A stretch of DNA of 64,000 nt from Gammaproteobacteria bacterium (lineage in GTDB: Bacteria; Pseudomonadota; Gammaproteobacteria; JAJFKO01): the NCBI GenBank assembly GCA_028284465.1, contig JANQRR010000021.1:34876-98875 (forward strand), given 5' to 3'. Position 1 is the first letter of the stretch; every line of letters begins with the position of its first letter. This document shows, in pieces, positions 6,421 through 26,406 of this stretch. A program made the translations under genes and the position numbers. The notes beneath the pieces are model-generated. The model worked only from the letters and a program-made list of their open reading frames with translations. It did not search any database and had not been told where the DNA came from.

Positions 6421-7608
6421 TTAGATAACTCCCAACTCACGACCAACTTTAGCAAATGCTGCTATAGCACGATCTAAATGTTGTTGTTCATGGGCAGCGG
6501 ACAACTGAACGCGGATCCTTGCTTGGTCTTTCGGTACCACTGGGTATGAAAAACCAATTACATAAATCCCTTCTTGCAGTAAATGATCGGCCATGACCGT
6601 TGCTAATTTCGCATCACCTAGCATTACGGGAATGATGGGGTGTTCACCTGGAATTAAATTGAAGCCAAGTTCGGTCATGCCTTTACGAAAATATTCACTA
6701 TTATAACGTAACTTCACTCGCAATTCATCAGAACCTTCTAATAAATCTAACACTTTTAATGATGTTGCGGTGATAACAGGTGCTAACGCATTGGAAAACA
6801 AATACGGTCGTGAACGTTGTCGCAGCCATTCGACAATTTCTTTACGGCCACTAGTATAACCGCCAGATGCACCACCAAGTGCTTTGCCTAATGTTCCCGT
6901 GATGATATCAACACGATCCATCACTCCACAATGTTCATGTGTACCTCGGCCTTTTTCGCCGACAAAACCTACTGCATGTGAATCATCAAACATTACTAAT
7001 GCATCGTATTTTTCAGCTAGATCACACACGCCTTTTAAATTCGCAATGATCCCATCCATTGAAAATACCCCATCGGTTGCAATGAGTTTAAAGCGACAGT
7101 CTTTGGCTTCTTGTAGTTTACGCTCTAAGTCAGCCATATCATTATTGGCGTAACGCAAACGTTTGGCTTTACATAAACGAATACCATCAATGATGCTGGC
7201 ATGATTTAAAGAGTCACTGATCACGGCATCTTGATCTGTTAATAACGTTTCAAATAAACCGCCATTAGCATCGAAACATGAAGAGTATAAAATCGTATCT
7301 TCCATTCCTAAGAATTGACTTAAGCGTTGTTCTAATTCTTTATGAGTATCCAATGTGCCGCAGATAAAACGTACTGAAGACATGCCATAACCACGTTCAT
7401 CGAGTGCATGTTTAGCGGCAGCGACAAGTTCAGGATGATTAGACAATCCTAAATAATTATTAGCACAAAAATTTATAACGTCTTCGCCACTGCGAACGTG
7501 AATTGATGCATTTTGTGGTGAGGTGATGATCCGCTCAGCTTTGTACAAGCCGGATTGTTTCAATTCTTCGGTTTCTTTAGCTAAATGATCTAGCAATGCA
7601 CTACGCAT
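6421..7608 (-). CDS. kbl: 2-amino-3-ketobutyrate CoA ligase (glycine C-acetyltransferase)
   Basis: PLP-dependent class II aminotransferase fold, Kbl-like along its full length. It forms the classic kbl-tdh operon arrangement. Confidence 0.9.
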
Positions 7609-7784
7609 GATTTTCTCCTGCAGTTTAGTAATATCTAAAGGATGGGGTGGCAGAAGGATATGCTAATTTGCATCAAGTTACAAGGATAAAGTGTGAATAA
7701 TGATATAATGAAAAAATTAAGTTACCTTTTTGATATATTTTTTAAAAATTGTCGTTTGTAGTAGCCTATTAATTCGAGTTATGC

Positions 7785-7812
7785 TGGATCCCGCGGTCAA
7801 GCCACGGGATGA
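7785..7812. repeat. module-2 hairpin of the repeat family (ggatcccgcggtcaagccacgggatga), solo copy D
   Basis: Same 9-bp stem and 5-nt loop hairpin as at 40767-40796 and 53134-53160. It has one stem substitution (cgcgg to ccacg). Confidence 0.7.
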
Positions 7813-7861
7813 GTACCTAGTTGGGTAAATAGATGACAGATTGCCAATATGGAAGTGAGCA

Positions 7862-8974
7862 GTGATGAAACAACTTAAGCGAATAATTATTAATTCTAAC
7901 CTTATTAAAATCTTATGCATCATTGTCTTATGTTTGTCATTAGGGGCTTGCAGTGGCGATAAAACCGATCAAAGTGCGCAAGTGATCCGGCCAGTAAAAA
8001 CTATGGTCATTGGTGATCCGACAGCGAGGTTATCGCGATCATTTCCTGGCAAAGTTAAAGCGACTAAAGAAGCGGTGTTGGCTTTTCGAGTCCCAGGGCA
8101 ATTAATTGAGTTGCCAATATTAGAAGGACAAAAAGTTAAAAAAGGACAGCTTTTAGCGCGTCTAGATCCAGCACCTTACCAGGATAAAGTCAACGAAACA
8201 AAAGCTAAATATGTATTGGCGAAAGCTGAGCTGGAACGCTATGCAAAACTATTGCCGCAAGGTCACGTGACACGCTCTGCCTATGATATTAAAAAAGCGA
8301 ATTATGGTGTTGATAAAGCTAATTATGAAAATGCAGTGCGTGATCTAAGTTATACGTATTTAAAAGCAGCGTTTGCTGGTTTAGTAGCGAAAAAATTTGT
8401 TGATAATTTTGAATATGTTAGAGCAAAGCAACCTATCTTAAGTTTACAAGATATCTCATATATCGATATCACGGTTGATATTCCTGAAAGTGTAATGGTT
8501 TATGTACGTGATGAAGGTGATGAAGATACGTCGAATATACGAGTTGAGTTTGAATCTGTGCCCAATCGTTCTTTCCCTGTCACCTATAAAGAGCATGCAA
8601 CTGCAGCTGATCCTGATACCCAAACTTATCGCGTGGTAATGAAAATGCCAGCTCCTAAAGGCATTAATATTCTGCCGGGTATGACGGCAACACTCAAAGT
8701 CAATATGGCAAGTATTCAAAGTAAAGATTTATTTTTAATTCCATCAAGTGCAGTTTTTACTGATGAAGATGCTAGGCAGTATGTATGGCTTATTGATCCT
8801 AAAACCATGCAACTTAAAAAGCGCCAAATTAAAACTCGCGGCTTAACCGGTGATCAGATCGAAGTAACGCAAGGTTTAAAAATTGGTGATCGCATTGTTA
8901 CCGCTGGCGTGCACTTTTTACGAGAAGGCATGACTGTGCGCATTGCAGATACTAAAAACCCAAAAGGTAATTAA
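7862..8974 (+). CDS. RND efflux periplasmic adaptor (membrane fusion protein), lipoprotein
   Basis: Signal peptide with lipobox LSLGAC. The HlyD/AcrA-like beta-barrel and lipoyl motifs are present. It sits immediately upstream of the RND permease. Confidence 0.85.
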   Translation: MMKQLKRIIINSNLIKILCIIVLCLSLGACSGDKTDQSAQVIRPVKTMVIGDPTARLSRSFPGKVKATKEAVLAFRVPGQLIELPILEGQKVKKGQLLARLDPAPYQDKVNETKAKYVLAKAELERYAKLLPQGHVTRSAYDIKKANYGVDKANYENAVRDLSYTYLKAAFAGLVAKKFVDNFEYVRAKQPILSLQDISYIDITVDIPESVMVYVRDEGDEDTSNIRVEFESVPNRSFPVTYKEHATAADPDTQTYRVVMKMPAPKGINILPGMTATLKVNMASIQSKDLFLIPSSAVFTDEDARQYVWLIDPKTMQLKKRQIKTRGLTGDQIEVTQGLKIGDRIVTAGVHFLREGMTVRIADTKNPKGN

Positions 8975-8984
8975 GAACTTTACG

Positions 8985-11900
8985 ATGAATATTGCGCAAT
9001 ATTCCATAAAACATAAAGTTATTACTTGGATGTTGGTGATCATTTTGATCGGCGGTGGAATTTTTGCGTTTGAATATTTAGGGCGTTTAGAAGATCCAGA
9101 ATTTACAATTAAAGAAGCTATGATCTTTACTTCATATTCAGGAGCCACGGCCCAAGAAGTGGAAACGGAAGTCACTGAGCATATTGAACGAGCAGTACAG
9201 CAATTACCGCAATTAAAACGTGTCACCTCAATTTCTAAGCCCGGGATGTCAGAAGTCACAGCAGTGATCAAAGACAAATACACCAAAAAAGATTTGCCAC
9301 AAATATGGGATGAATTGCGTCGTAAGATCACCGATGTACAAAGTAAATTGCCGCCAGGTGCCGGACCTTCAACTGTATATGATGATTATGGTGAAGTATT
9401 TGGGATGTATTTTGCTTTAACTGGAGAAGGCTTTAGTTATAAAGAATTAAAAGATTATGCAGATATTATTAAGCGCGAGTTATTGTTAGTTAAAGGTGTG
9501 GGTAAAGTAGAATTAAGCGCAAACCGACAACAAGCTGTGTTTGTTGAAATTTCCGATGCGCGTTTATCACAATTAGGGATCTCACCAGACAGTATCGCAA
9601 AAACATTAAAATCACAGAATTTCGTCACTTATTCTGGTGAAGTTAAAGTTGGCGATGAATACATACTTATTAATCCGACAGGAACATTTTCTGATGTTAA
9701 ACAAATTGGCAATATCTTAGTTAGTGGTAGCGAATCTAAGCGCTTAGTACATTTAGATGATGTCGCTAAAATTGTACGAGGTTACATCGAAGTACCAGAG
9801 CATTTAATGCGGTTTAATAATCAACCTGCAATTGGTATTGGTATTTCAATTGTATCCGGTGGTAATGTTGTAAAAATCGGTGAAGATATTGCAGAGAAAG
9901 TCAAATCATTGCAGGGGATATTGCCCGTAGGCTTAAAGCTAAACCCAGTCTATCTACAACCAATTGTGGTTAATGAAGCGATCAACGGCTTTTTAATTAG
10001 TTTATTAGAAGCCTTAGCGATTGTTGTCGTTGTATTGTTACTTTTTATGGGATTGCGAGTCGGAATTTTAATTGGCGCTATTTTATTATTAACGGTGCTT
10101 GGTACCTTTATTTTTATGTATATATTTGGCATCGATTTACAACGGATCTCGCTTGGCGCGTTAATCATTGCATTAGGGATGTTAGTCGATAATGCTATCG
10201 TTGTTACTGAAGGTATTTTAGTACGTATTCAAAAAGGTGAAGATGGTACCCAAGCATCGAGTAAAGTAGTTAAGCAGACCATGTGGCCGTTATTTGGGGC
10301 AACGGCAGTTGGTATATTAGCATTTGCCGCTATTGGTTTATCACCAGATTCCACAGGCGAATATACTCGCTCACTATTTCAAGTGATTTTAATCTCATTG
10401 ATGCTTAGTTGGTTTTTAGCGATCACGGTATCGCCAATGTTATGTGTTTTATTTATTAAACCTAAGCCAGGCAAGTTAGTTGCCGATCCGTATCAAGGGT
10501 GGTTTTATCGGATTTATCGACGGTTTTTATTAATGTGTATTCGTGCGCGTTGGTTAACTATTACTGCAATGTTAGGGTTATTAGCATTATCAATTTTTGG
10601 TTTTGGTTTCGTCAAGCAAAGTTTTTTCCCCAATTCAACCACACCGGTATTTTTATTAGATTATTGGCGAGCCCAAGGTACTGATATCCGTGAAACTGAG
10701 CAAGATACTAAAAAGCTGGTTAAATACGTTATGACACTTAAAGATGTGGAATCGGTAACTTCAGAAATTGGCCAAGGCGCACAACGATTTATGTTAGTCT
10801 ACACGCCAGAGAAACCTAACAGCAGTTATTCACAGTTAGTGATTCGGGTAAAAGATTATCGTGACATTGATCACGTTGAAAAGAAAATTGCGCAATATTT
10901 AAAAGAGAATTTTCCGAATTCAGAACCTAAGTTTAAACGTATACGTTTAGGCCCAGGCAAAGATGCAAAGATTGAAGCACGTTTTAGCGGATCTAATCCG
11001 ACGATTTTGCGTAAATTATCTAATGAAGCGCAAGCAATCATGCATCAAAATCCTAATGCTATTAACATTCGTGATGATTGGCGCCAACAAGTTAAAGTAT
11101 TACAACCGATTTATTCTGAAGCACAAGCACGTGTCACTGGGATCACGCGCCCAGATCTCGCACAATCTTTAGCAAAAGCATTTACTGGCATTCAAGTGGG
11201 TTTGTACCGAGAGGGTGATACGTTATTGCCAATTATTATGCGACCACCGGAAAATGAAAGATTAAATGTAGGCACTATTTATAATTTACAAATTTGGAGC
11301 CCAAATCTTAAAAAGTTTGTACCCATAGGGCAAGTGGTTTCAGGATTTAAAACGACTTGGAGCAATGATCGTATTGCTCGCAGAAACCGTCGCCGGACGG
11401 TTACTGCATCAACCGATCCAAAAACAGGCCCGGCTAGTGAATTGCTAAAGCAACTACGTCCGAAGATCGAAGCGCTTAAATTACCAACGGGTTATAAACT
11501 TGAATGGGGTGGTGAATATGAAGATTCATATGATGCACAAGTAGCGTTATACAAACAATTGCCTGTGGGAATTCTAGCAATGATCATCATTGTCGTGTTG
11601 TTATTTTCTAAAGTTCGCCAACCATTGATTATTTGGTTGTGTGTGCCGTTAGCATTTATTGGTGTCACCGCAGGATTATTGATAACCAATAATGAATTTG
11701 GTTTTATGGCATTATTAGGTTTCTTGAGTTTGATAGGAATGTTGATCAAAAATGCGATTGTATTAATCGATCAAATTGATTTAGAAATTGATACAGGCAA
11801 AGATCCGTTTCAAGCTATTATTGATTCAGCCGTAAGCCGCGTACGGCCAGTATCGCTTGCAGCAATTACCACGGTATTAGGAATGATCCCATTATTATTT

Positions 11901-12029
11901 GACGCATTTTTTGTGAGTATGGCAGTGGTGATCATGTTTGGTTTAGCCTTCGCAACGGTATTAACTTTAATTGTTGTGCCAGTGTTATATGCTATATTCT
12001 TTAAAATACCTTATCGAGTATTGGCATGA
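8985..12029 (+). CDS. RND family efflux permease (AcrB/HAE1-like)
   Basis: About 1015 aa with 12 TM segments and two large periplasmic loops, AcrB-like throughout. Start chosen at MNIAQYS, 10 nt after the MFP stop. Confidence 0.9.
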   Translation: MNIAQYSIKHKVITWMLVIILIGGGIFAFEYLGRLEDPEFTIKEAMIFTSYSGATAQEVETEVTEHIERAVQQLPQLKRVTSISKPGMSEVTAVIKDKYTKKDLPQIWDELRRKITDVQSKLPPGAGPSTVYDDYGEVFGMYFALTGEGFSYKELKDYADIIKRELLLVKGVGKVELSANRQQAVFVEISDARLSQLGISPDSIAKTLKSQNFVTYSGEVKVGDEYILINPTGTFSDVKQIGNILVSGSESKRLVHLDDVAKIVRGYIEVPEHLMRFNNQPAIGIGISIVSGGNVVKIGEDIAEKVKSLQGILPVGLKLNPVYLQPIVVNEAINGFLISLLEALAIVVVVLLLFMGLRVGILIGAILLLTVLGTFIFMYIFGIDLQRISLGALIIALGMLVDNAIVVTEGILVRIQKGEDGTQASSKVVKQTMWPLFGATAVGILAFAAIGLSPDSTGEYTRSLFQVILISLMLSWFLAITVSPMLCVLFIKPKPGKLVADPYQGWFYRIYRRFLLMCIRARWLTITAMLGLLALSIFGFGFVKQSFFPNSTTPVFLLDYWRAQGTDIRETEQDTKKLVKYVMTLKDVESVTSEIGQGAQRFMLVYTPEKPNSSYSQLVIRVKDYRDIDHVEKKIAQYLKENFPNSEPKFKRIRLGPGKDAKIEARFSGSNPTILRKLSNEAQAIMHQNPNAINIRDDWRQQVKVLQPIYSEAQARVTGITRPDLAQSLAKAFTGIQVGLYREGDTLLPIIMRPPENERLNVGTIYNLQIWSPNLKKFVPIGQVVSGFKTTWSNDRIARRNRRRTVTASTDPKTGPASELLKQLRPKIEALKLPTGYKLEWGGEYEDSYDAQVALYKQLPVGILAMIIIVVLLFSKVRQPLIIWLCVPLAFIGVTAGLLITNNEFGFMALLGFLSLIGMLIKNAIVLIDQIDLEIDTGKDPFQAIIDSAVSRVRPVSLAAITTVLGMIPLLFDAFFVSMAVVIMFGLAFATVLTLIVVPVLYAIFFKIPYRVLA

Positions 12030-13699
12030 GTCAATTAACGGGTACAGTAGTAAGCATTGATCCGAAAACTCAGTTTGCTGGTGTCATTTATATTAAAGTT
12101 AAATCAAACAAAGGCACCGATGAATATTATATTTCTAAAGTGGCGTTAAAAAAACAAAAGCTTGCAATTTTACAACGCACGCAATCGCAAGCAGGTCGAG
12201 CTTATTATCTTGATAATTCTACTATTGAAAAACTTGCAAAACATGCGCTTAATACCGAAATAAATAGTAAAAAAGCAGTCAGCATTACTTTTGAAAAAGC
12301 ATTAAAAAAATCCACAATAGTTTTTATAGAGACCAAACCATTATTGAAACATAAGCTTAAGCCACAGGCATTATTTGAAGTTCATACCTTAAAAAAGCCC
12401 GGAAAAATTATCACCCAAGGGATCGGCATTGGTAATAAAATAGCTCAAGGCAAGGTGCGAGTGATCACTGACCAACGGCAACTAACGTCGTTAAAAAAAC
12501 ATGAGATATTAGTAACATCAATGATTGAGCCACATTCACAAGCTATCATCAAACGTGCTGCAGCCATTGTGATGGAGCAAGGTGGTCGCACTTGTCATGC
12601 GGCTATCACGGCTCGCGAGTTGGGAATTCCAATGATAATAGGATGTTGTGATGCAAGCAAAATTTTAAAAACCGGTACCAATGTTACGGTAACATGTGAA
12701 CACAATCGAACGGGTTATGTTTATTCAGGCTTAGTTCCTTATGAGATTAAACACCTAGAACTTGCGAAGTTTAAGTCAATGCCTTATCCGTTGAGGATTA
12801 ATCTAGGTGATCCGCATAAAGCATTTGCTTACCAAGCAATTCCCAATGAAGGTGTTGGTTTAGCCCGACTCGAATTTATTATCGGTAATACCATTGGTAT
12901 TCATCCGCAAGCATTGTTAAATTACGCTAAGTTACCAAAAAGAGTGCAAACAAAAATTGCAAAAAGAACTGCGGCGTATGTTTCTCCCAGCGAATTTTAT
13001 ATTGAAAAATTACGTGAAGGTATTGCAACTATTGCTGCAGCATTTCATCCTAAGCCAGTTATTTTTAGATTTTCAGATTTTATTTCTAATGAATATCGCA
13101 ATTTATTGGGTGGTGAGTTGTATGAGCCGACAGAAAATAATCCTATGCTAGGTTTTCGTGGTGCTTCGCGATATTTGAATCCAGCGTTTCAGCCAGCTTT
13201 TGCGTTAGAGTGTGAAGCTTTTAAACGTGTGCGTAATGATATGGGTTTCACGAATGTAAAATTAATGGTGCCTTTTGTGCGTACTCTTGCCCAAGCTCAA
13301 GCAGTTATTAAATTGCTTACAAGTTATGGTTTGAAATACACTAAAAGATCAGATTTACAAATTTATATGAATTGTGAAGTACCATCAAACGCTATTCTTG
13401 CCGAAGAATTTTTGCAATACTTTGCTGGTTTTTCCATTGGCACTAATGATTTGACACAAATGACACTAGGTTTAGATCGTGATTCTAGTTTAATTGCAGA
13501 TTTGTTTGATGAACAAAATGCGGCAATTAAACTCTTGCTGCAAAAAATTATTAAAGCCTGTAAACAACAACATAAGTTTGTTAGCATCTGCGGACAAGCA
13601 CCCTCAGATCATATTGAATTTGCAAAATGGCTGATAGCACAAGGCATCGATAATATTTCGCTAAGCCCAGATGCAATCATTGATTGGCTATTTCATTAA
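12026..13699 (+). CDS. PEP-utilizing enzyme; PEP synthase (PpsA) C-terminal two-thirds homolog lacking the N-terminal ATP-binding domain
   Basis: Phosphohistidine motif GGRTCHAAITARELGIPMIIGC and C-terminal PEP/pyruvate-domain motifs (NEGVGLARLEFII, SIGTNDLTQMTLGLDRDS) match PpsA. Only about 120 aa of unrelated K-rich sequence precede them. The start overlaps the RND stop (ATGA). Confidence 0.75.
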   Translation: MSQLTGTVVSIDPKTQFAGVIYIKVKSNKGTDEYYISKVALKKQKLAILQRTQSQAGRAYYLDNSTIEKLAKHALNTEINSKKAVSITFEKALKKSTIVFIETKPLLKHKLKPQALFEVHTLKKPGKIITQGIGIGNKIAQGKVRVITDQRQLTSLKKHEILVTSMIEPHSQAIIKRAAAIVMEQGGRTCHAAITARELGIPMIIGCCDASKILKTGTNVTVTCEHNRTGYVYSGLVPYEIKHLELAKFKSMPYPLRINLGDPHKAFAYQAIPNEGVGLARLEFIIGNTIGIHPQALLNYAKLPKRVQTKIAKRTAAYVSPSEFYIEKLREGIATIAAAFHPKPVIFRFSDFISNEYRNLLGGELYEPTENNPMLGFRGASRYLNPAFQPAFALECEAFKRVRNDMGFTNVKLMVPFVRTLAQAQAVIKLLTSYGLKYTKRSDLQIYMNCEVPSNAILAEEFLQYFAGFSIGTNDLTQMTLGLDRDSSLIADLFDEQNAAIKLLLQKIIKACKQQHKFVSICGQAPSDHIEFAKWLIAQGIDNISLSPDAIIDWLFH

Positions 13700-13977
13700 A
13701 TATCGCCGTGTTTAGTTGGCGAACCCTTAGTGGTGTTCGGTGTCACTCCTAAGTCACGCATTGCTTTAAGAATATGATCAAGCAAGTCATAACGGTCATC
13801 AGTACATGGCATGTTTTCTTCATCAGCAACTTGCATATCAAGAGCATCGTGCTTCCAACTTTTTAAAATTTCAATCTTTTGATCACGTTTTAATTCTTTG
13901 CACGTCAGGACGTCATCTGGAGTTTTGAAAAAATGGCTAGGTTCAAGCTTGGCTTTTTCAATGTTGATTGTTCCCAT
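13696..13977 (-). CDS. hypothetical small acidic protein (93 aa)
   Basis: The ATG at 13977 is preceded by TAAGGAG at proper spacing, contributed by the end of repeat element B. No homolog recognised. Confidence 0.4.
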   Translation of the reverse strand: MGTINIEKAKLEPSHFFKTPDDVLTCKELKRDQKIEILKSWKHDALDMQVADEENMPCTDDRYDLLDHILKAMRDLGVTPNTTKGSPTKHGDI

Positions 13978-13989
13978 TACCTTTACTCC

Positions 13990-14143
13990 TTAATAACTTC
14001 GTCTTTTGGCTCAGAGCGTATTTATCGTCATTGCGAGGAACTTTGTTCCGAAGCAATCCAGAAACTGCAGTGGATTTCACGCTCAAGCCACGCAATAATA
14101 TCTCTGGATTGCTTCATCCCCTTCGGGTCCTCGCAATGACAAT
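13990..14143. repeat. palindromic intergenic repeat element, full copy B (unit, 40-nt core, inverted unit, plus terminal flank)
   Basis: Units are cgtcattgcgaggaactttgttccgaagcaatccaga and tctggattgcttcatccccttcgggtcctcgcaatgac. The core aactgcagtggatttcacgctcaagccacgcaataatatc is near-identical to the reverse-complement cores of copies F and G. The left flank is the reverse complement of the F/G right flank. Confidence 0.85.
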
Positions 14144-14262
14144 ATCCTTCATGGCGTCTCAATTAGGGTCTTTTTACAATTATAGCTTGAAAAATTGATA
14201 TGGTTATTAACACATAAAATATATTTATTTTTCATGGAGATAGAGAAGATAAGCTTGAAGGT

Positions 14263-14676
14263 TTAATCCCAAGGATTAATAATTTCAAGCAGTGGGTATT
14301 TAAAATCAGAAACGTTTCTGGTAGCCAGTGTTAAATCATGCCGCAATGCAGTTGCGGCGATCAAACTATCAATCGCTGAAACAGGTCGTTTAGCTTCTGC
14401 TTGTAATTTTCCCCAACAATCCACGACATCTTTATCGATAACCAGTATTCTATTATTAAACCAAGTAATTAATTCTTGCTCTAACCAAATTTTTAACTTT
14501 TCTTTGCGACGTGTGTTATCAGTTATTTTTTCTATCCCTTTACGAATTTCTCCTAACGTTAACACACTTAAATATAAATCTTCATCTGAAATTGTTTCCA
14601 TCCAGGCAATAACTTTTTTGTTAGGCTTAGATTTAACTATTTCTGAGATAACGTTGGTGTTAATTAAGTAACTCAT
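14263..14676 (-). CDS. vapC: type II toxin VapC (PIN-domain ribonuclease)
   Basis: The N-terminus MSYLINTNVISE is a PIN-domain signature with conserved acidic residues. It overlaps the upstream antitoxin by ATGA. Confidence 0.85.
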   Translation of the reverse strand: MSYLINTNVISEIVKSKPNKKVIAWMETISDEDLYLSVLTLGEIRKGIEKITDNTRRKEKLKIWLEQELITWFNNRILVIDKDVVDCWGKLQAEAKRPVSAIDSLIAATALRHDLTLATRNVSDFKYPLLEIINPWD

Positions 14677-14924
14677 AAATCGATATTCCGGCAGGTGGTT
14701 TTATTACGTTTTAAATCTAAATTTAAGCCAACCAAGGGTGATTTACGTAACATTTTTACTAATGAAATATGAGGCTTCTTAACAAGTTTATTGTAGTCTC
14801 TTCGTGAAATTACCACGGCAGTGGGTTCTCCACGAACAGTGATATCTTGAGGCCCTTGAGTAACAGCCAGCTTTATAACTTTGCTAAATTCCGCCTTTGC
14901 GTTCTGTAGTTGCCAGGTGTGCAT
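14673..14924 (-). CDS. vapB: type II antitoxin (Phd/YefM-type VapB)
   Basis: MHTWQLQNAKAEFSKVI...PTAVVISRRDY is a typical Phd/YefM antitoxin N-terminus. I place the start at the ATG at 14922-14924 with a GGAGG SD 6 nt upstream. The track ORF begins at an upstream TTG. Confidence 0.75.
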   Translation of the reverse strand: MHTWQLQNAKAEFSKVIKLAVTQGPQDITVRGEPTAVVISRRDYNKLVKKPHISLVKMLRKSPLVGLNLDLKRNKTTCRNIDL

Positions 14925-14938
14925 TTGATCCTCCAATA

Positions 14939-14959
14939 CTGACTAGTTATACTAGTCAG
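14939..14959. promoter_or_regulatory. perfect inverted repeat CTGACTAGT-TAT-ACTAGTCAG in the vapBC promoter region (putative antitoxin operator)
   Basis: A 9-bp perfect IR lies 15-35 nt upstream of the vapB start. Autoregulated type II TA promoters typically carry such palindromes. Confidence 0.4.
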
Positions 14960-15021
14960 AAGTATAGTGCGAATTTGATAGTTTGGCAATATTTTTCATA
15001 CTAGCTTGAAATCAAATTGAC

Positions 15022-15771
15022 TCAAACGCCTGTCACTTCATTCCAAATATCAACCTGTAATCTCGAGGTGTAATTCATTAAATGTTGTTTACAGGCTTCG
15101 ATTAACCAAGTCGATTTGGCTAGAATAGCTTCGCGGGTGCCACCTTCGGGCATTAGCCAAACTTTATTGCGAGGAATATTAAAAGGCTGGCAATAACGTG
15201 CAATAATTTCTTCGATATCGCCAGGCGATTGGATCACAAATTTAAATGCAGCAGATGGTAATGCAGCAAAGCTTTGCAAAATATCAGGATGATAAGCTTT
15301 TGGATCAGGCTCGCCACTGCTACGCAATTTTGGGCTTACATTAAATTGATTAACACGAATTTGTAATTCAGGTATTGGCAGTTTAGTGGCATTGGTTTCA
15401 ATTTCAATAAAGGGGGCTGGTGAAATACATTCATCAAGTTGTTTGATAAATTCAACGATTTTAGTTTGTTGCAATAATGGTTCGCCACCAGTGATCACCA
15501 AATGTGCGCCACACGCCAGTTTATCGAGCCAGCCGTGTTGCTGCCAATTGCCAATAATGTCGGCAAAAGTGAATTTATGGCCTTTGCTCCAAACTAACTT
15601 GCTATCGCAGCCAAGGTGTTCGCCAGTCGTTGGGTCTTTATAAGAAAACCCTGAGCATTGTAGATTACAGCCACTCAAGCGTAGAAAAACTGCTGGTTGA
15701 CCAGCGCACGGCCCTTCGCCTTGAATACTATAGAAAGTTTCGCTGGTATATAAATGGTTTTTAGTGTTCAT
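15022..15771 (-). CDS. queE: 7-carboxy-7-deazaguanine synthase (radical SAM), atypical Cys spacing
   Basis: ETFYSIQGEG and the overall QueE fold are present. The cluster cysteines are spaced C-x3-C-x15-C (GCNLQCSGF...HLGCDS) rather than CxxxCxxC. Confidence 0.8.
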   Translation of the reverse strand: MNTKNHLYTSETFYSIQGEGPCAGQPAVFLRLSGCNLQCSGFSYKDPTTGEHLGCDSKLVWSKGHKFTFADIIGNWQQHGWLDKLACGAHLVITGGEPLLQQTKIVEFIKQLDECISPAPFIEIETNATKLPIPELQIRVNQFNVSPKLRSSGEPDPKAYHPDILQSFAALPSAAFKFVIQSPGDIEEIIARYCQPFNIPRNKVWLMPEGGTREAILAKSTWLIEACKQHLMNYTSRLQVDIWNEVTGV

Positions 15772-17669: not shown

Positions 17670-20600
17670 ATGAAACGAGCATCAGATGCCGAATGTCGAC
17701 AAGAAATCATCTCCAAATTAGTTGCGATTGCAGAAAAAAAACTTAGTAAGAAAAAAACAGCGTTATTTGCTGAATTTGTTAAGCAATATTACTCCCATGT
17801 GGCACTTGAAGATTTATATTCACGCAGCATCATCGATTTATATGGCGCAGTGATATCGCATTGGAATTTCATGTATGAACGCAAAAAACATGAAGTTAAA
17901 TTACGAATTTTCAATCCAACATTTGAAGAAGATGGTTGGGAGTCACGACATACTGTGATCCAATTGGTTCATGATGATATGCCATTTTTAGTTGACTCAG
18001 TTACCATGGAGTTAAATCGCCTGGGATATACAATTTATTTAATTATTCATGTTGGTGGCATAATTGTACATCGTAATAACAAACATCAGTTAAATAAAAT
18101 TTTTCCGGTAGATTATTCTAGCGACATCATTTCTGGCAAGATCAATACCGTTAGTTTAAAAGAAGAGGAAGAATTACAAAGTGGAATTGCAGAAGCACCA
18201 ATTTATATTGAAATTAATCGTGTTACCGATCCAGCAGTTATTACCAACATAGAGAAAAATATAATACGCATTTTAAAAGATGTTCGAGTTGCAATTGATG
18301 ATTGGGACAAAATGCGTGGTAAAGTTTATGAAATTGTTGATGAACTAGAAAGTTGTCGGCATGTATTGCCTAATATTTCTGAGCTAGATGAAACTAAAGA
18401 ATTTTTACGTTGGATGGTCAATGATCATTTTACTTTTCTCGGTTGTCGTGATTATAAATTAATTGGTCAAGACGAAGAAATGGCATTGAAAATAGTCCCC
18501 GGTTCAAGTGCAGGGGTTTTGCGTAATGAAAAGTCGAGTAAACAAATTCGTAAATTTAGCGAAATGCCGGAAATTATTCGTGATTTAGCATTATCTAATC
18601 AAATTTTAATTATCGCTAAATCTAATACTTTAGCAACAGTACATCGTCGAGTTTACACAGAATTAATTAGTATTAAACGCTTCGATAGTGAAGGCAATAC
18701 TATTGGTGAGCGTAGGTTTGTAGGTTTATTTACTTCAACAGCATACAGTAGTCGCCCTAAAGATATTCCGTTTATTCGCGATAAAGTGCGTCAAGTCATG
18801 TTGCGATCACATTTATCATTACGCGGTCATTCAGGTAAAGCACTATTACATATTTTAGAAACGTATCCGCGTGATGATTTATTTCAAGCAAGTGTGCAAG
18901 AAATTTATGATACTTGCATTGAGATCATGCATATGCAAGAGCGTCCACAGATCCGTTTGTTTGCTCGCAGAGACATTTATAATCGTTTCATGTCATGTAT
19001 GGTTTACGTGCCTAGAGAATTATACAACACAGAATTACGCCAACAAATGCAAGCAGTGTTAGCCGAAGCATTTCAAAGTGCAGAAGTCACGACGACCACA
19101 CAGTTTTCTGAATCTATTTTGGCTAGAATTCATTTTATGTTGCATCTCGATCAAACGAAAGTGATCGATTATGATTTAAAAGCTATTGAAAAACGTTTAA
19201 TTGAAATAGGGCGATCGTGGAAACATGATCTGCATGATAACTTATGTGAATATTATGGTGATGAACAAGGTAATCGTTTAGCAGCAAAATACTATGATGC
19301 ATTCCCTGTAGGTTATCGTGAAACATTTATTGCAGCTTTGGCTATCAATGATATTCGCCATTTAGAAAAATTATCAGAAGATAATACGCTAGAAATGAGC
19401 TTATATGTTCCCAGTGATTCACCACCAGAAACAGTACGCTTTAAACTATACCATGAAAATCTTACGATACCTTTATCAGATGTGTTACCCGTGCTGGAAA
19501 ATATGGGGATGCGCGTAATTGGTGAAGAACCTTATGAAATTCGCACCAAGGATAAGCGAGTTTATTGGATAAATGATTTTTACATGACGAGTGTTAAACA
19601 TGAAATTTTAGATATCTCTGTGATTAAAAGCGTTTTCCAAGAAGCATTTCGTAATATTTGGTTTGGTTGTGCTGAAAACGATGGGTTTAATTACTTAGTG
19701 ATTGGTGCTGAATTATCTTGGCGCGAAACCAGTTTGTTGCGTGCCTACGCAAAATATTTTCGTCAAATTGGTTTTACTTTCAGCCAATCATATATTGAAG
19801 AAACATTGATGTCGAATCCAAGTATTGCAGCGCAATTAGTTGATTTGTTTAATATGTACTTTGATCCACAGCAAATTGAAACTTCTGAAGCTAAAGTGAA
19901 GCAACTCGAAAAAAGTATTGAAGAATCTCTAGATTCAATTGCTAATTTAGATCAAGATAGGATCTTACGACGATTTTATGAAATTATTAAAGCAACAGTA
20001 CGTACTAATTTCTTTCAAATAGAAAAATCTGGGCGATATAAACCTTATATTTCATTTAAACTTGATTCGCGTAATATTCCTGAATTACCACTACCATTGC
20101 CGTTGTATGAAATTTTTGTCTATTCACCTAAATTTGAGGCGGTGCATTTGCGTAGTGCTAAAGTTGCTCGTGGTGGTATTCGTTGGTCAGACCGTCGAGA
20201 AGATTTTCGTACCGAAATACTTGGCTTGATGAAAGCACAACAAGTTAAAAATTCGGTAATTGTTCCGCAAGGTGCTAAAGGTGGTTTTGTTCCGAAGAAT
20301 TTGCCTATCGATGGTAATCGTGAAGAAATTTTAGCAGCGGTGATAGCGTGTTATCGTAATTTTATCAAAGGTATGTTAGATATTACTGATAACTTAAAAT
20401 CAGGCAAAGTGATCCCGCCTAAAAATGTCGTGCGTTATGATGAAGATGATCCTTATCTAGTTGTTGCTGCGGACAAAGGAACTGCAACCTTTTCTGATAT
20501 TGCAAATAGCATTGCCAAAGAATATGGTTTTTGGTTAGGTGATGCGTTTGCATCAGGAGGCTCTACTGGCTATGACCATAAAAAAATGGGGATCACTGCG

Positions 20601-22586
20601 CGTGGTGCTTGGGAATCGGTAAAACGACATTTTCGTCATTTAAATCTTGATATTCAAGCTAACAATTTTACCGTGATAGGGATCGGTGATATGGGTGGTG
20701 ATGTGTTTGGCAATGGTATGTTGTTATCACGTCATATTAAATTAATAGCTGCGTTTAATCACTTACACATATTTCTTGATCCAAAACCAAAGCCAGATGT
20801 TAGTTATCGTGAGCGCCGCCGCTTATTTAAGTTATCACGATCAACTTGGGCTGATTATAATCCCAAGCTTATTTCTCGTGGTGGTGGTGTCTATCGGCGC
20901 TCCGCCAAATCGATCCGCGTATCAGCACAAGTTAAAGAAGTATTTGGATTAAAGAAAGATGTGTGGGTGCCTAATGATTTAATTCGTGAAATGCTCAAAG
21001 CAGAAATAGACTTATTGTGGAATGGTGGTATTGGAACTTTTGTAAAATCTTCATTAGAAGCGAATATAAACGTTGGGGATCGTACTAATGATTCAATTCG
21101 AGTTGATGCCGATGAATTGCAATGTCGGGTTGTTGGTGAAGGCGGTAACTTAGGCTTTACACAACTCGCGCGGGTTGAATATGAATTGATGGGAGGGATG
21201 ATCTACACTGATTTTATCGATAATTCTGCCGGCGTTGATTGTTCTGACCATGAAGTTAATATAAAAATCTTATTAAATGAAGTCGTCCGCAAAAAAGAAT
21301 TAACAAAAAAACAACGTAATAAATTATTAGCAGAAATGACGGCTGAGGTTGCTGAATTAGTATTATCGAACAATTACCATCAAACTCAAGCGTTAGAAAT
21401 GTCAATGCATGATCCAGTAGCAACGATTAATCTATACAATCGTTATATTGTTGAACTCGAGCATGATGGAGAATTAAACCGCGAATTAGAATTCTTGCCA
21501 ACCGAAAAAGATTTATTAGAACGTAAAGCAGTAGGAAGAGGTTTCACTCGCCCAGAAATTTCAGTGTTGCTAGCCTATAGTAAAAATATTTTAAAAGAAA
21601 AAATCTTAGCGTCAGATATCCCTGATAACAAAGGTTTAGATTGGATATTAGAATCAGCATTCCCCAAACCTTTACGTACAAAATATAATAACTATTTACA
21701 AAAGCATAGCTTACGACGCGATATTATTGCCACCCAATTGAGTAATGTTGTTATTAATGATATGGGTAGCTCATTTATCCATCGCATGAAAAATGAAACG
21801 GGTGCCCCTGAAAGCTCTATTGTTAAAGCGTATTTAATTTCACAATATATATTTGATCGTGATGGTTTATGGGAAGATGTCCATTCACTAGATAATAAAA
21901 TTGATTCTAGAGTGCAGATCAGAATGATGTTGCTAGCTTATCGGTTAATTTTGCGAGGCACTCGCTGGTTTTTACGAAATCGACGTTATAAATTAGATAT
22001 TTTGCAATATCAACAATATTTCGTTGCAGACGTGAAAAAACTTGCTGGAATGGTAAATAAATTAATAATCGGTTCGGAGCGCGATAATGTTGATAAGATA
22101 ATACAAATTTTTGTAGAAGCAGGCGTTGATGAAACTATTGCGCAAAGGATAGCAGTTACTGATGTATTATTTCCAGCACTCGATATTATTGATGCAGCAA
22201 AAAAGAATAACTTGAATTTAGCAAAATTTGCTGAAGTCTATTATACCTTAGGTGATATGTTAGAGTTAAGCTGGATCCGTCAGCAAGTGCGGGATTTCAG
22301 TTTTGAAGGTTACTGGGAAGCATTAGCACGGTCGGCATTACGTGATGATATTGATAAACAACAATGTTTATTAGCGGTTTATGCGATGAAATATAAAACC
22401 CGTACTCGTAATACTGAAAAACGGATCCAAGAATGGTTGGAGTCGCATCGTAGTTTAGTTGATCGTTGGTTTAGTATTGTTGCTGATCTGCGTGGCACTA
22501 GCACGCCATCGTTTACAATGTATCTAGTCGCAGTGAGGGAGCTAGCTGATTTGACGCAAGTAGAGCCGATGGTTGAGGTTGCGTGA
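17670..22586 (+). CDS. gdhB: NAD-specific glutamate dehydrogenase, large (about 180 kDa) class
   Basis: 1638 aa. The central Glu/Leu/Phe/Val dehydrogenase catalytic region (KGGIR, GxGxxG NAD site around GIGDMGGDVFGNGML) matches the large NAD-GDH family. Confidence 0.88.
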   Translation: MKRASDAECRQEIISKLVAIAEKKLSKKKTALFAEFVKQYYSHVALEDLYSRSIIDLYGAVISHWNFMYERKKHEVKLRIFNPTFEEDGWESRHTVIQLVHDDMPFLVDSVTMELNRLGYTIYLIIHVGGIIVHRNNKHQLNKIFPVDYSSDIISGKINTVSLKEEEELQSGIAEAPIYIEINRVTDPAVITNIEKNIIRILKDVRVAIDDWDKMRGKVYEIVDELESCRHVLPNISELDETKEFLRWMVNDHFTFLGCRDYKLIGQDEEMALKIVPGSSAGVLRNEKSSKQIRKFSEMPEIIRDLALSNQILIIAKSNTLATVHRRVYTELISIKRFDSEGNTIGERRFVGLFTSTAYSSRPKDIPFIRDKVRQVMLRSHLSLRGHSGKALLHILETYPRDDLFQASVQEIYDTCIEIMHMQERPQIRLFARRDIYNRFMSCMVYVPRELYNTELRQQMQAVLAEAFQSAEVTTTTQFSESILARIHFMLHLDQTKVIDYDLKAIEKRLIEIGRSWKHDLHDNLCEYYGDEQGNRLAAKYYDAFPVGYRETFIAALAINDIRHLEKLSEDNTLEMSLYVPSDSPPETVRFKLYHENLTIPLSDVLPVLENMGMRVIGEEPYEIRTKDKRVYWINDFYMTSVKHEILDISVIKSVFQEAFRNIWFGCAENDGFNYLVIGAELSWRETSLLRAYAKYFRQIGFTFSQSYIEETLMSNPSIAAQLVDLFNMYFDPQQIETSEAKVKQLEKSIEESLDSIANLDQDRILRRFYEIIKATVRTNFFQIEKSGRYKPYISFKLDSRNIPELPLPLPLYEIFVYSPKFEAVHLRSAKVARGGIRWSDRREDFRTEILGLMKAQQVKNSVIVPQGAKGGFVPKNLPIDGNREEILAAVIACYRNFIKGMLDITDNLKSGKVIPPKNVVRYDEDDPYLVVAADKGTATFSDIANSIAKEYGFWLGDAFASGGSTGYDHKKMGITARGAWESVKRHFRHLNLDIQANNFTVIGIGDMGGDVFGNGMLLSRHIKLIAAFNHLHIFLDPKPKPDVSYRERRRLFKLSRSTWADYNPKLISRGGGVYRRSAKSIRVSAQVKEVFGLKKDVWVPNDLIREMLKAEIDLLWNGGIGTFVKSSLEANINVGDRTNDSIRVDADELQCRVVGEGGNLGFTQLARVEYELMGGMIYTDFIDNSAGVDCSDHEVNIKILLNEVVRKKELTKKQRNKLLAEMTAEVAELVLSNNYHQTQALEMSMHDPVATINLYNRYIVELEHDGELNRELEFLPTEKDLLERKAVGRGFTRPEISVLLAYSKNILKEKILASDIPDNKGLDWILESAFPKPLRTKYNNYLQKHSLRRDIIATQLSNVVINDMGSSFIHRMKNETGAPESSIVKAYLISQYIFDRDGLWEDVHSLDNKIDSRVQIRMMLLAYRLILRGTRWFLRNRRYKLDILQYQQYFVADVKKLAGMVNKLIIGSERDNVDKIIQIFVEAGVDETIAQRIAVTDVLFPALDIIDAAKKNNLNLAKFAEVYYTLGDMLELSWIRQQVRDFSFEGYWEALARSALRDDIDKQQCLLAVYAMKYKTRTRNTEKRIQEWLESHRSLVDRWFSIVADLRGTSTPSFTMYLVAVRELADLTQVEPMVEVA

Positions 22587-22611: not shown

Positions 22612-25600
22612 CTAGGTGCTAGGGCAAAAGAGATATTCATTTATATTGTTTCCATTAGGTTCTTCTGACTGTTTTGTGTCTGGAATTGGTATAGTGGTTC
22701 TGGGTTGTTTACCTTTTGTTCTAGCATCAAAAAATAAATGACCACAAGCAATAAATTTTTTAAGGTAAGTTTCAGATGTATATTTGGGGTTTTCTAAGGT
22801 TGTCCTAAAAGCTATAGACCCATCGAGAGTGGCAGCAAGTAGTTTCCAAGCATATATGATTTCTTCGATTTTTATATTTATCTCATTATTATTTGTGGTT
22901 GTTAAATTTTGAGAAAGTTTTTTTTGTAAGGTAGTAAATGAAGGAATATAGTTAGCACTGCGTGCTGGAGGAGCGCTGATCAAAGAATAAATATTATTCT
23001 GTAAATCAGTGCCATTTTTAGGTGCATCTTTTAGGATAATTTCGAGATTATTTTTTACATATTTTTGAATAAAGCCAAGATGAAGTGTAATAAACAATAC
23101 ATCAATAGTACGAGATTCTAATATAGGTTTGCCAATAAAATTACGGTGAAGGTTTTCTACTATATTATTAAAGTTTTTATTGGTAATGGTCAAAGGAACA
23201 TTGAGTAAATTATTAAATTCAATTATTTCTGATTGTTCAGTATCTTCCGGCCAAGAATAAGCGTTAGAACTAGAGAAGCTTGTTTCTGCCCAAGCTTTAT
23301 AATGCTCTATGCATTTTAAGAATTTTTTTGTATCTTTACCTGGTGGTAAATTTTGTTTTATCTTAGTGATCTGAGTACATAAAGCTAAAATTAAAGTGCA
23401 GAAATTCTTTTCTGCTTTTAGGATACCTCGTAGAACTAATACATGCGGTGGCCCTTTAGATGAATGAGGTTTATCAGCTGTTGCTTTCCTTTTCCCTTTT
23501 TTATCCATTTCAGTGTCGTCAAATAATGCTTTTTTTACTTTTGGGGTTACAGAACTTTTCTTTCGACGAGATACACGCTTATATGGTGTGCCAATCGAAC
23601 TCGTCATTTTTTTTAGTACCGGTGTAGTGGCGGTAGGATTTTTAGTTGGCGTTGTTGGTGTATGATCTGTTGCGCTGGTACTTAAAACTTGTTCAGATAA
23701 AATAGATTGAATTTGTGCTTGCATAGCCTGTATACTATCGCTAGCTTCACCTTGCCATTCTTGTAATGCCATAAGCTGCGTTAGTAAGAATCCACGTTCC
23801 TTTGCATGTGCTAATGATGTTTGTTGTTGTGTTCTAACTAGCTCAGACAGTAGCCTCACCTGTTGATCAACTGCGGCTAGGCCAGGAGTTATGACTCCAA
23901 TCCCAGGCTTAAGATCTGCTGTAAGCGTAGTTTTAACATGCTTCGTTATTAATAATTGATTTAATGTTTTAAACTCGCCATTGAGTAATTCTATTTTCTT
24001 TGTAAAAGGATTTTTTTTCCAAGTGCTGGTATTAGGTTTAAGTATTTCTGGTAAATAGTAATTTTCAATAGTATAAGATAAACTTTGATTCGGGCTTGGT
24101 GGGGCTGCAAGTTCTAATAATACAGCTTTGGTGCGTTCAAATAATTGATTACTTAATTCTTCGATGCTACCAGAGGCTACTTGAGCAAACATTTTATTGC
24201 AGCGTAAAATAAGCCGTAACGTTAATAATTTTGCAAATAAGCCAACCTCAGTACCTGTCATTGTTAATTCTGCTAAAGTATCACAAGATTGTTGAGTAAG
24301 ATATTGCCCACACATGCTGACAATATTGGAAGTTGCACTTATTATGGGAGCGCCTACAGGGGTGATCATGCCAGCAATTGTAAAGTACTTGTTTAATTTA
24401 CCAAATTTACTGCTAACTGAGACATCACCACTTTTAGCAACTCTGGCGGCTTCTAATTGTATTGATAATCGTTTGCAAAGTTTTATGTATAATTGATCCA
24501 AACTTTTGTTATTAAGCTGAGAAATTTTTTGTTCTAAAGTTTTAATGTCGATAGTAATTGAATGTGCATGGATTAATGTTTTAAGTTTATTGCAATCGAT
24601 CTCTGAAAGATTAGGGATTTTTGCTTCTAAGTTGTCGATATCAATGCGCAAAGCTTGCATTTGTTCATCAAAACTTGATGAACTGCTGCCAGTGGCTGAG
24701 TATTTATAATCGTCTAATATAAATTTTACTTGCTCTTCTATTTTTTCATAGGTTCTTGAGGTTTTACTTTGTGTTTGTGATAAATTTTCATCTTCTTTCA
24801 ACGCTGCTAAAGCATCATTGTTATTTATTGTTGTTTGAATATGTTTTAGTTCAGGAATTAATTGTTCCTTCTCTTTTGAACGAAAACCTAAAAACCCTGC
24901 TAAAGATTTGGCGCGTTTTTTAATAAATGCATTATGATTTTCAATTATATTAGTTATGCGAATTTGTGTGCCGTCAGCCTTGACAGTCGCATTACAATCT
25001 TGAAATTTAGTAATTTCTGAAATTAAGTCTTTGACGATAGGCAATACGCGGCCTTGCCTTTTTTCCATCGATTGTAGGGTATAAATAAAGTGGATCTTGC
25101 TTTCACCTGTAAGATGGCCTTTTTTAAAATGAAATAAAATCTTGCGTCCCAATCTAGCTGTGAGTTCTTCCATGTCTGGGATTTTATGTAGGGCATGAAA
25201 TACCAATACTAATTGACTGAGATCACTTTCATTAAGCACTTTATTAATAAAAATATTAACAATAGAGTTGATGTAGTTTTTATAAGTTGAACGAGTTGCA
25301 AAATGGTATTTTTTTAATTGTGGATAGCTTGCGATCACAGGTAAAACATAGTCACTCCATTTCAGTGGTGTGGCCTCTGCTTGTTCTCCATCTTCGGGGA
25401 ATCCAGTTAACAACTCTCGAGCCTTATTGCCTGCTACCCAAAATTTCCACCATGATCGTTTAATATCAAATAATTGCTTGCTAACTATGCCAATAATTGC
25501 AGTGATTTGTTGTGAATTTTCTTCAATAGTTTCCGCTAAACAATCTGGTAGCATAGGTGATGTGGCTTTTGCCGCTGCACCATTCTTTACGGTGTTTGGT

Positions 25601-26406
25601 AGCATAGGCGCTAAAATAACTCGAATGCGCAATAAAGCGCGCATTAAGTCAGTATTACTTTGCAAATTTGCCAAAGCAAGTTTAGGTGTTATTGTATTGT
25701 TACTTGTATCTTCTAGATTTCTTATGATTGTATCTAATTCTTCAGATGATCTATCCTTAAATTTTCCAATAATCGTATTTAATAGTGTTGTTAATTCATC
25801 AACTTTTATTTTTTTATTATTAATGGCAGTCGTGATCTCAGATAAAATAGAACTAGAAACAATAGAATATTGTTCATGATTTGAATTTTTTAATGCATAT
25901 GAACAATGCGCGCGTGCATAACGTAATAAAGACAGTTTTTCATTAAGACGCTTTACTGTCAGAGGGGATGCGCTGGCATTATAAAATTTTTCTAGCCGAA
26001 TTTGTTTTTGTTTTTCAGTTTTTTTATCGTTAAATAAAAATCTTAAAACATAATTGATTTTAGTTTGTAAAGTTTTAATGCTTTTTTGTAAATCTTTATC
26101 GGTAGTGCGCTTGAAATATTGGCATAATCTGTAATGATATTTTAAACAATATAATAATTCATGTGCTAAAGTTATCGCTTGTTCTTTATTATTATATGTA
26201 GAGCTTGACGGTGCCAATGATGTTCTATTCGGATATATTTCATCGTATTTTTTCTTAAAATAATTATAATCAACTTCAGTCAAAATATTATTATTAATTT
26301 GATCGATTGCATAAGCTAAAAATTCTTTAGCATATGTTACTTTTTGTTTATCATTTCTACGTTGGTCAAAAGCTTCGATTATTATAGTTAGATCACCTTT
26401 AGCCAC
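22612..26406 (-). CDS. large hypothetical protein (1264 aa), effector-like
   Basis: Intact ORF, N/K/I-rich, with no recognisable catalytic motif. It has an internal P/T-rich linker (HTPTTPTKNPTATTP) followed by a basic patch (KRVSRRKK...KKGKRK). No signal peptide. Confidence 0.6.
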   Translation of the reverse strand: MAKGDLTIIIEAFDQRRNDKQKVTYAKEFLAYAIDQINNNILTEVDYNYFKKKYDEIYPNRTSLAPSSSTYNNKEQAITLAHELLYCLKYHYRLCQYFKRTTDKDLQKSIKTLQTKINYVLRFLFNDKKTEKQKQIRLEKFYNASASPLTVKRLNEKLSLLRYARAHCSYALKNSNHEQYSIVSSSILSEITTAINNKKIKVDELTTLLNTIIGKFKDRSSEELDTIIRNLEDTSNNTITPKLALANLQSNTDLMRALLRIRVILAPMLPNTVKNGAAAKATSPMLPDCLAETIEENSQQITAIIGIVSKQLFDIKRSWWKFWVAGNKARELLTGFPEDGEQAEATPLKWSDYVLPVIASYPQLKKYHFATRSTYKNYINSIVNIFINKVLNESDLSQLVLVFHALHKIPDMEELTARLGRKILFHFKKGHLTGESKIHFIYTLQSMEKRQGRVLPIVKDLISEITKFQDCNATVKADGTQIRITNIIENHNAFIKKRAKSLAGFLGFRSKEKEQLIPELKHIQTTINNNDALAALKEDENLSQTQSKTSRTYEKIEEQVKFILDDYKYSATGSSSSSFDEQMQALRIDIDNLEAKIPNLSEIDCNKLKTLIHAHSITIDIKTLEQKISQLNNKSLDQLYIKLCKRLSIQLEAARVAKSGDVSVSSKFGKLNKYFTIAGMITPVGAPIISATSNIVSMCGQYLTQQSCDTLAELTMTGTEVGLFAKLLTLRLILRCNKMFAQVASGSIEELSNQLFERTKAVLLELAAPPSPNQSLSYTIENYYLPEILKPNTSTWKKNPFTKKIELLNGEFKTLNQLLITKHVKTTLTADLKPGIGVITPGLAAVDQQVRLLSELVRTQQQTSLAHAKERGFLLTQLMALQEWQGEASDSIQAMQAQIQSILSEQVLSTSATDHTPTTPTKNPTATTPVLKKMTSSIGTPYKRVSRRKKSSVTPKVKKALFDDTEMDKKGKRKATADKPHSSKGPPHVLVLRGILKAEKNFCTLILALCTQITKIKQNLPPGKDTKKFLKCIEHYKAWAETSFSSSNAYSWPEDTEQSEIIEFNNLLNVPLTITNKNFNNIVENLHRNFIGKPILESRTIDVLFITLHLGFIQKYVKNNLEIILKDAPKNGTDLQNNIYSLISAPPARSANYIPSFTTLQKKLSQNLTTTNNNEINIKIEEIIYAWKLLAATLDGSIAFRTTLENPKYTSETYLKKFIACGHLFFDARTKGKQPRTTIPIPDTKQSEEPNGNNINEYLFCPST

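Follow-up and report, generated by a model that had tools for sequence, protein, structure and literature searches.

A truncated PpsA derivative encoded behind an RND efflux operon in a gammaproteobacterial genome

Results

The window analysed here is a stretch of 64,000 nucleotides (64 kb) from a Gammaproteobacteria bacterium (GenBank assembly GCA_028284465.1, contig JANQRR010000021.1, positions 34,876 to 98,875 of the forward strand), and our subject is a truncated gene for the phosphoenolpyruvate (PEP) synthase PpsA that lies directly behind the two genes of a resistance-nodulation-division (RND) efflux operon. In window coordinates, the locus contains the following features, the central open reading frame (ORF) being given both as a whole and by its parts:

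7862 to 8974, + strand: RND periplasmic adaptor (membrane-fusion protein), first gene of the operon (TIGR01730 RND_mfp, 247 bits against a cut-off of 94.9; Pfam HlyD_D23 and HlyD_3)
8985 to 12029, + strand: RND (AcrB-type) inner-membrane permease, complete (PF00873, 533 bits, profile positions 1-1020 of 1021)
12026 to 12029, + strand: ATGA stop/start overlap of permease and truncated ppsA, read directly from the sequence (ATG at 12026-12028, permease TGA at 12027-12029)
12026 to 13699, + strand: truncated ppsA ORF, 557 amino acids (aa), opening at the first start codon past an in-frame stop at 12002-12004
12026 to 12415, + strand: degenerate C-terminal piece of the PpsA ATP-grasp domain (residues 1-108) with linker (residues 109-130), together colinear with PpsA residues ~201-345
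12416 to 12730, + strand: phosphohistidine (swivel) domain, residues 131-235 (PF00391, 6e-21, at residues 157-225)
12794 to 13684, + strand: PEP/pyruvate-binding TIM-barrel domain, residues 257-553 (PF02896, 2e-55, at residues 257-552)

An earlier note on this DNA (the original prediction) had described a PpsA-like protein with a phosphohistidine and a PEP/pyruvate-binding domain whose ATG overlaps the stop of the permease, and all of this is borne out. The overlap is present at 12026-12029, and the same sample yielded an independent Logan assembly contig in which the junction between permease and ppsA is found again. The product begins with (M)SQLTGTVVSIDPK, every one of the motifs quoted in the note (GGRTCHAAITARELGIP, NEGVGLARLEFII and SIGTNDLTQMTLGLDRDS) occurs in the translation, and Pfam matched PEP-utilizers and PEP-utilizers_C. 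The nucleotide-binding family PF01326 (PPDK_N), in contrast, gave no match at E<=0.01 anywhere in the 557-aa ORF. Overlapping the permease stop as it does, the truncated ppsA has no space for a promoter of its own. A promoter and terminator scan of positions 7400-15200 was uninformative, with fewer sites than in shuffled sequence.

The original prediction had further proposed that the N-terminal ~120 aa are an unrelated K-rich replacement of the nucleotide-binding domain. This is refuted by BLASTP, by NCBIfam and by a profile of 114 full-length PpsA sequences, all of which identify a remnant that is homologous to PpsA. In BLASTP, residues 4-553 of the query are colinear with residues 201-784 of Legionella PpsA, and the alignment to the NCBIfam PpsA model begins at query residue 39, corresponding to model position 268. 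When residues 1-108 alone are compared with the profile, they score 19.8 bits, as against 6.3 bits for the best of 300 shuffles, and they match at the colinear positions 224-252 and 282-329. Residues 1 to ~200 of PpsA are thus wholly absent, while the following ~145 residues are kept as a degenerate remnant.

How far this remnant has degenerated is evident from the multiple alignment, where two deletions, of 9 and 25 aa, have both left the frame intact. The conserved ATP-grasp motifs SGVMFTLDTESGF, SYGLGE, MDIEWAKDG and LQARPET are all deleted or replaced, and the stretch MDIEWAKDG...LYILQARPET of PpsA has become VSITFEKAL...IVFIETKPLL. The D-x-E and Q-x-R of this motif, which we take to contribute Mg and phosphate ligands in PPDK, have S-x-T and E-x-K as their counterparts. 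The remnant consists of 17% lysine and has a GC content of 0.32 compared to 0.38 in the remaining gene, both features being compatible with drift in an AT-rich genome. The only PADLOC match, a weak one to the defence model HEC-02B (18.4 bits, E 4.8e-4), also falls within the remnant, at residues 51-105 (12176-12340). It probably reflects remote ATP-grasp similarity, and PADLOC did not find a defence-system context around it.

The two remaining domains present a different picture. The loop G186-G187-R188-T189-C190-H191-A192-A193-I194 is invariant throughout an alignment of 20 sequences, so that the family motif GGRTCHAAI.ARELG is kept, including the catalytic His191 (codon 12596-12598) and Thr189 two residues ahead of it. 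Likewise, the family-invariant residues of the PEP site (R348, R378, E451, N474, D475, R485 and C522, the last encoded at 13589-13591) are all kept. An AlphaFold2 (AF2) model of the protein matches PpsA 2OLS, the PDB entry that is also the best hit of the protein (1e-160), and Foldseek matched the PpsA C-domain structures 9dae (root-mean-square deviation (rmsd) 2.5 A) and 8a8e (rmsd 2.0 A). The GC content of the part encoding both domains (0.379, and 0.266 at third codon positions) is like that of the neighbouring genes, and this part therefore is a long-term resident of the genome.

To compare the parts of the protein with one another, we used the 114 full-length PpsA sequences as reference. 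The remnant is 26% identical to the family, within which identity is 59%, and the branch leading to the ORF protein measures 1.6-1.8 as opposed to 0.13-0.35 for its nearest neighbour. For the phosphohistidine domain, the identity is 50% (72% within the family) and the branch is 0.56-0.64 (nearest neighbour 0.08-0.18). The PEP domain, finally, is 64% identical to a family whose own identity is 70% (minimum 56%), with a branch of 0.25-0.30 compared to 0.14-0.20, which places it at the divergent edge of the PpsA family. This steep gradient argues for purifying selection on the PEP domain, for less of it on the phosphohistidine domain, and for a remnant that would be almost free of constraint. Since the divergence is graded along the gene, uniform neutral decay is excluded as its source. 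Synonymous sites are saturated, because the nearest homologue is only ~50% identical.

Despite its degeneration, the remnant has kept its reading frame. Its 130 codons are free of stops, whereas each of the five other frames contains 7-15, and the probability of such an open frame under random composition is 2e-5. In simulations of neutral decay to 30% identity, stops were gained in 1500 of 1500 cases. The absence of stops argues that the remnant is translated, presumably because the only usable start sits within it, and we predict it to be translated yet not nucleotide-binding. Taken together, these features point to a half-enzyme that is translated and under selection rather than to a recent pseudogene.

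The truncated form is a singleton: the sole match above 54% identity in a set of 5.8 billion clustered proteins is the ORF protein itself, the remaining matches listed being either full-length PpsA (~790 aa) or shorter, and exhaustive scanning of 1.84 billion representatives with HMMER likewise found nothing closer than 54% identity. At 46-54% identity there are many full-length PpsA proteins, among the named ones those of Legionella, Legionellales, Marinobacter and unclassified gammaproteobacterial metagenome-assembled genomes.

Several shorter entries were considered as truncated relatives and were rejected. One of 515 aa (P0017) is cut by a contig end, and P0391 is an intein-containing piece. 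In P0399, P0403, P0418, P0438 and P0472, ATP-grasp motifs of the DIEW and QARPET types are still recognisable, and the first three of these also have no Met start and look like fragments. P0472 and P0477 are unrelated degenerate forms of PpsA that belong to other lineages: in P0477 (488 aa), the GGRTCH loop has become HDRRVSH, and P0472 (502 aa) has lost the PEP-site motifs SIGSNDL and ICGQ. Derivatives of PpsA that have lost a part may recur across lineages. One full-length sequence (P0106) that was considered as the ppsA of the same genome turned out to come from a different sample, ERR13636775.

The position of the gene behind the efflux operon was examined from both sides. The independent gene call places the start of the adaptor at 7865 and that of the permease at 8985 (its longest ORF runs from 8943), permease homologues of 1011-1020 aa are 62-67% identical at 99-100% coverage, and the permease has, like these homologues, a short variable tail behind its last transmembrane helix ('...PVLYAIFFK'). 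RND homologues with 64-67% identity were found in three different contexts, none of which has a ppsA downstream, and none of three close full-length PpsA homologues has an RND gene nearby; the neighbourhoods of the nearest full-length PpsA and the nearest RND homologues have no neighbours in common. A search of genome contigs with the permease retrieved Roseibium/Labrenzia loci only, at 48-49% identity.

A relative from sample SRR18502801, whose Kbl is 92% identical at the amino acid level and which shows 84% nucleotide identity, retains the order kbl-tdh-dnaE, but the similarity ends 76 bp upstream of kbl, at approximately window position 7684 (within 7609-7700). In this relative, the divergent neighbour of kbl is not the adaptor, and it has no counterpart within the window. 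This loss of similarity places the block of adaptor, permease and truncated ppsA at a synteny breakpoint. In GCA_021773175.1, which is more distantly related, the kbl block and the RND operon lie on separate contigs. The adjacency of pump and truncated ppsA thus is lineage-specific. The suggestion that the protein is "hard-wired" to the efflux pump therefore stands only as far as the shared operon position goes: it is seen in one genome, and the adjacency is not conserved among relatives of either the RND genes or PpsA.

An ORF of 93 aa (13696-13977, - strand), which is also called by an independent annotation, runs towards the truncated ppsA, and the two share 4 bp at the ppsA stop; Pfam, NCBIfam and PADLOC gave no match to this ORF. 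Just downstream lies a type II toxin-antitoxin pair (14263-14936, - strand), whose overlapping genes encode a toxin with a PIN domain (137 aa) and an antitoxin of the Phd/YefM type (87 aa). It is followed by a radical-SAM-like ORF (15022-15771, - strand) that matches QueE models weakly (37.5-58.2 bits against cut-offs of 200-300) and may represent QueE in a divergent form or a different 4Fe-4S enzyme. Further on, a Bac_GDH-type NAD-specific glutamate dehydrogenase of 1638 aa (17670-22586, + strand) has its ACT and helical-motif domains all intact.

Four large ORFs without any Pfam family are dispersed among housekeeping genes, namely 22612-26406 (- strand, 1264 aa, especially AT-rich with a GC content of 0.33), 29649-31097 (- strand, 482 aa), 41690-43711 (- strand, 673 aa) and 49630-53037 (+ strand, 1135 aa). 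They may be proteins specific to the lineage of a Legionellales-like organism, possibly secreted ones or ones resembling effectors. Rfam had no match over the whole window.

Discussion

We have described a real truncated PpsA derivative that appears to be maintained by selection. Our preferred reading, for which we would put the probability at roughly 0.55, is that it represents a lineage-specific derivative of PpsA that lost its 5' part and came to be placed behind an RND operon, where it would persist as a selected half-enzyme of phosphohistidine and PEP domains with only the PEP partial reaction at its disposal. We infer the following order of events. A rearrangement or deletion would have taken away the ppsA promoter and the first ~200 codons, and the leftover 3' two-thirds of the gene would have landed directly behind the efflux operon. 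From there, it could have been expressed via read-through transcription of the pump operon and the ATGA stop/start coupling, such that the proximity to the pump would be a source of expression signals rather than a functional partnership. The remaining ~145 residues of the ATP-grasp domain would then have decayed to a Lys-rich N-terminal extension of which the reading frame alone was kept, with purifying selection persisting on the phosphohistidine domain and most of all on the PEP/pyruvate domain.

As to the chemistry of the product, the original prediction that it cannot run the PpsA reaction is upheld by the sequence, since ~200 residues of the ATP-grasp domain are gone and the motifs of the remnant are deleted or replaced. 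The protein is probably confined to the third partial reaction of PpsA, PEP + His191 <-> pyruvate + His191~P, which would proceed without the use of ATP. N-terminal deletion mutants of Clostridium symbiosum PPDK, in work by Xu et al. in Biochemistry in 1995, reportedly still run the PEP/pyruvate partial reaction. A half-enzyme that is phosphorylated on its histidine in a PEP-dependent manner is a reasonable reading of the residues that are kept and of their graded conservation. Its phosphoryl group might be lost by slow hydrolysis or transferred to some acceptor, or it might report on the PEP:pyruvate ratio.

Comparison with known systems places the protein within the PpsA family by descent. 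Like PpsA (pyruvate, water dikinase, EC 2.7.9.2), with which it is colinear over residues ~200-790, it has an identical GGRTCH loop and a complete PEP site, and its closest solved structure is that of Neisseria meningitidis PpsA (2OLS). It differs in that the first ~200 residues are absent, the grasp remnant is degenerate and the phosphohistidine domain is unusually diverged, and canonical ATP binding is ruled out. Among the family models, it scores 622.7 bits with NF005057 of NCBIfam (cut-off 598), with the match limited to model positions 268-780 of 798, and 599.1 bits with TIGR01418, below the cut-off of 739.75. It is a PpsA by descent, but one that is devoid of the defining ATP-grasp feature.

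The label "Enzyme-I-like", which the original prediction had offered, is apt for the shared phosphohistidine and PEP domains, but not beyond them. The predicted chemistry is that of Enzyme I (EI; PtsI/PtsP), in which a swivel domain docks on a homologous TIM barrel and has its histidine phosphorylated by PEP, and the corresponding domain pair of the model superposes on phosphorylated EI (2HWG) with an rmsd of 4.1 A over 438 columns. However, the HPr-binding N-terminal domain of EI is absent (PF05524 is unmatched), and EI models score far below their cut-offs (122.1 against 341.7 bits for TIGR01417, 96.8 against 824 bits for PRK11177). Phylogenetically, the protein is PpsA and not EI.

A closer conceptual precedent, and by analogy the nearest one, is VadK (Rv1127c) of Mycobacterium tuberculosis, a truncated PPDK without a PEP domain that autophosphorylates and acts as a regulatory histidine kinase (PMC13400623). 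Both are members of the dikinase superfamily that are missing one substrate domain and have kept the phosphohistidine domain. VadK has kept its autophosphorylation and is retained by selection, as the present protein appears to be. However, VadK keeps the ATP-grasp and phosphohistidine domains and uses ATP, whereas the protein described here keeps the phosphohistidine and PEP domains and should use PEP. Furthermore, VadK is conserved across pathogenic mycobacteria, while the present protein is a singleton.

A number of observations weigh against the reading that we prefer. The truncated form is carried by one genome only. Translation may begin at an internal in-frame start, for instance GTG at Val39 or TTG at Leu107, instead of the ATG that overlaps the permease stop. 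The phosphohistidine domain is altered at 14 of the 47 columns that are at least 95% conserved, including a change of TDPDWEP to IEPHSQA, whereas other family members are altered at no more than 3; in our interpretation, heavier losses in this domain would be expected once docking to the ATP-grasp domain had become dispensable. In the PEP domain, 11 of 137 such columns are altered (K353I, E371N, M449N and R497Q among them), compared to at most 8 in others. Given these changes in both domains, it is uncertain whether the protein is catalytically competent. The AF2 model is of high confidence (pLDDT 83.5, pTM 0.86), and for the remnant this confidence may be borrowed from the full-length homologues in the alignment. 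Finally, no component of the phosphotransferase system (PTS), HPr/NPr, PpsR or other partner was found among the ORFs of the window scanned with Pfam or NCBIfam, a scan that did not include the last five ORFs (58803-63770).

It is against this background that other explanations need to be weighed. The gene might be a decaying pseudogene, that is, a functionless 5'-truncated relic of ppsA that is open by chance and transcribed owing to the pump. This would fit a singleton without a conserved truncated family that sits at a synteny breakpoint in a variable region, and also a branch that is accelerated in all three parts (1.3-2x even in the PEP domain) with several near-invariant residues altered. 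In addition, the closest matches of the PpsA part and of the pump are both Legionellales-like, and gene loss is frequent in host-associated lineages such as these. A literature search on ppsA pseudogenes in Legionellales found nothing relevant. Neutral decay is uniform, however, and here the PEP domain is as conserved as in divergent bona fide PpsA next to a remnant at 26% identity. Moreover, all 557 codons are open in a genome of 38% GC, the most decayed part is the one without stops where other frames have 7-15, both of its deletions are in frame, and the full set of catalytic residues is kept, all of which leaves a pseudogene unlikely in our view. Rather less probable still is a split enzyme, in which a complete ATP-grasp subunit encoded elsewhere would act in trans with the protein to give normal PpsA activity. 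The model for such an arrangement is phenylphosphate synthase: its alpha and beta subunits, and those of phenylphosphoamidate synthase, resemble PpsA/PPDK and carry PpsA-like modules on separate polypeptides (PMC7500099). A histidine domain that still cycles would fit the intact phosphohistidine loop, in which Thr189 is kept as well. But the subunit genes of these enzymes are clustered and their ATP-binding subunit is present, while tblastn of the window with full-length PpsA as query detected no N-terminal fragment (the only match being 12017-13684), and the present protein ends in a genuine PEP/pyruvate domain rather than in one for aromatic substrates. The break also falls inside the ATP-grasp domain and not at a domain boundary, the piece of grasp domain that was kept has none of the conserved motifs and so cannot complement a fragment, and the loss of 14 of 47 near-invariant residues from the phosphohistidine domain is consistent with the loss of one docking partner.

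Two further explanations would give the protein a partner. It could form mixed oligomers with a full-length PpsA encoded elsewhere and modulate it as a non-catalytic subunit. PpsA- and EI-type enzymes oligomerise via the PEP domain, which is the best conserved part of the protein, and in the descriptions of solved structures (9dae, 8a8e) the PEP domain alone forms the core of the PpsA multimer. Since such a role would not call for the invariant phosphohistidine loop and the full set of PEP-site residues that the protein has kept, we think it very improbable. The link to the pump that the original prediction had favoured would have the PEP-charged histidine protein phosphorylate the pump, the adaptor or the pump substrate, with the ATGA coupling matching their amounts. 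The 4-bp overlap of stop and start does put the gene into one operon with adaptor and permease, and a new binding role of the Lys-rich N-terminal extension, which has been kept open, is conceivable. On the other hand, the adjacency is unconserved in three RND homologues (64-67% identity), which are followed by unrelated genes, and in three PpsA homologues, and in the relative at 84% nucleotide identity the block is not next to kbl. No substrate-binding domain has been gained, the remnant has decayed without acquiring a new conserved motif, and we know of no precedent for a PEP-dependent modification of RND pumps or their substrates, so that we give this explanation the slightest chance of those considered here.

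Beyond the half-enzyme that we prefer, one may speculate that the loss of the ATP-grasp domain turned PpsA into a stand-alone, PEP-charged phosphohistidine protein, which would serve some target, possibly the co-transcribed RND pump, either as phosphodonor or by sensing the PEP:pyruvate ratio. This would amount to an independently evolved, Enzyme-I-like form of signalling outside the PTS, and we consider it doubtful. Taken as a whole, the original prediction was partly right in what it observed and finds partial support for how it was interpreted, but neither the unrelated N-terminus nor a connection to the pump beyond the position in the operon has held up.

The significance of our finding is limited by its restriction to one genome and by the fact that no partner or phenotype has been recognised so far. 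It does have a practical side, since the protein passes the cut-off of NF005057 and pipelines will therefore probably label it as PpsA. Automated annotation would thus assign to this genome a gluconeogenic PEP synthase that the truncated ppsA gene cannot provide. An active half-enzyme would be a natural counterpart of the deletion mutants with which the mechanism of the swivelling domain was dissected. It would also constitute, after VadK, a second and mirror-image case of a dikinase that has lost one substrate domain and is kept for a use other than its metabolic reaction.

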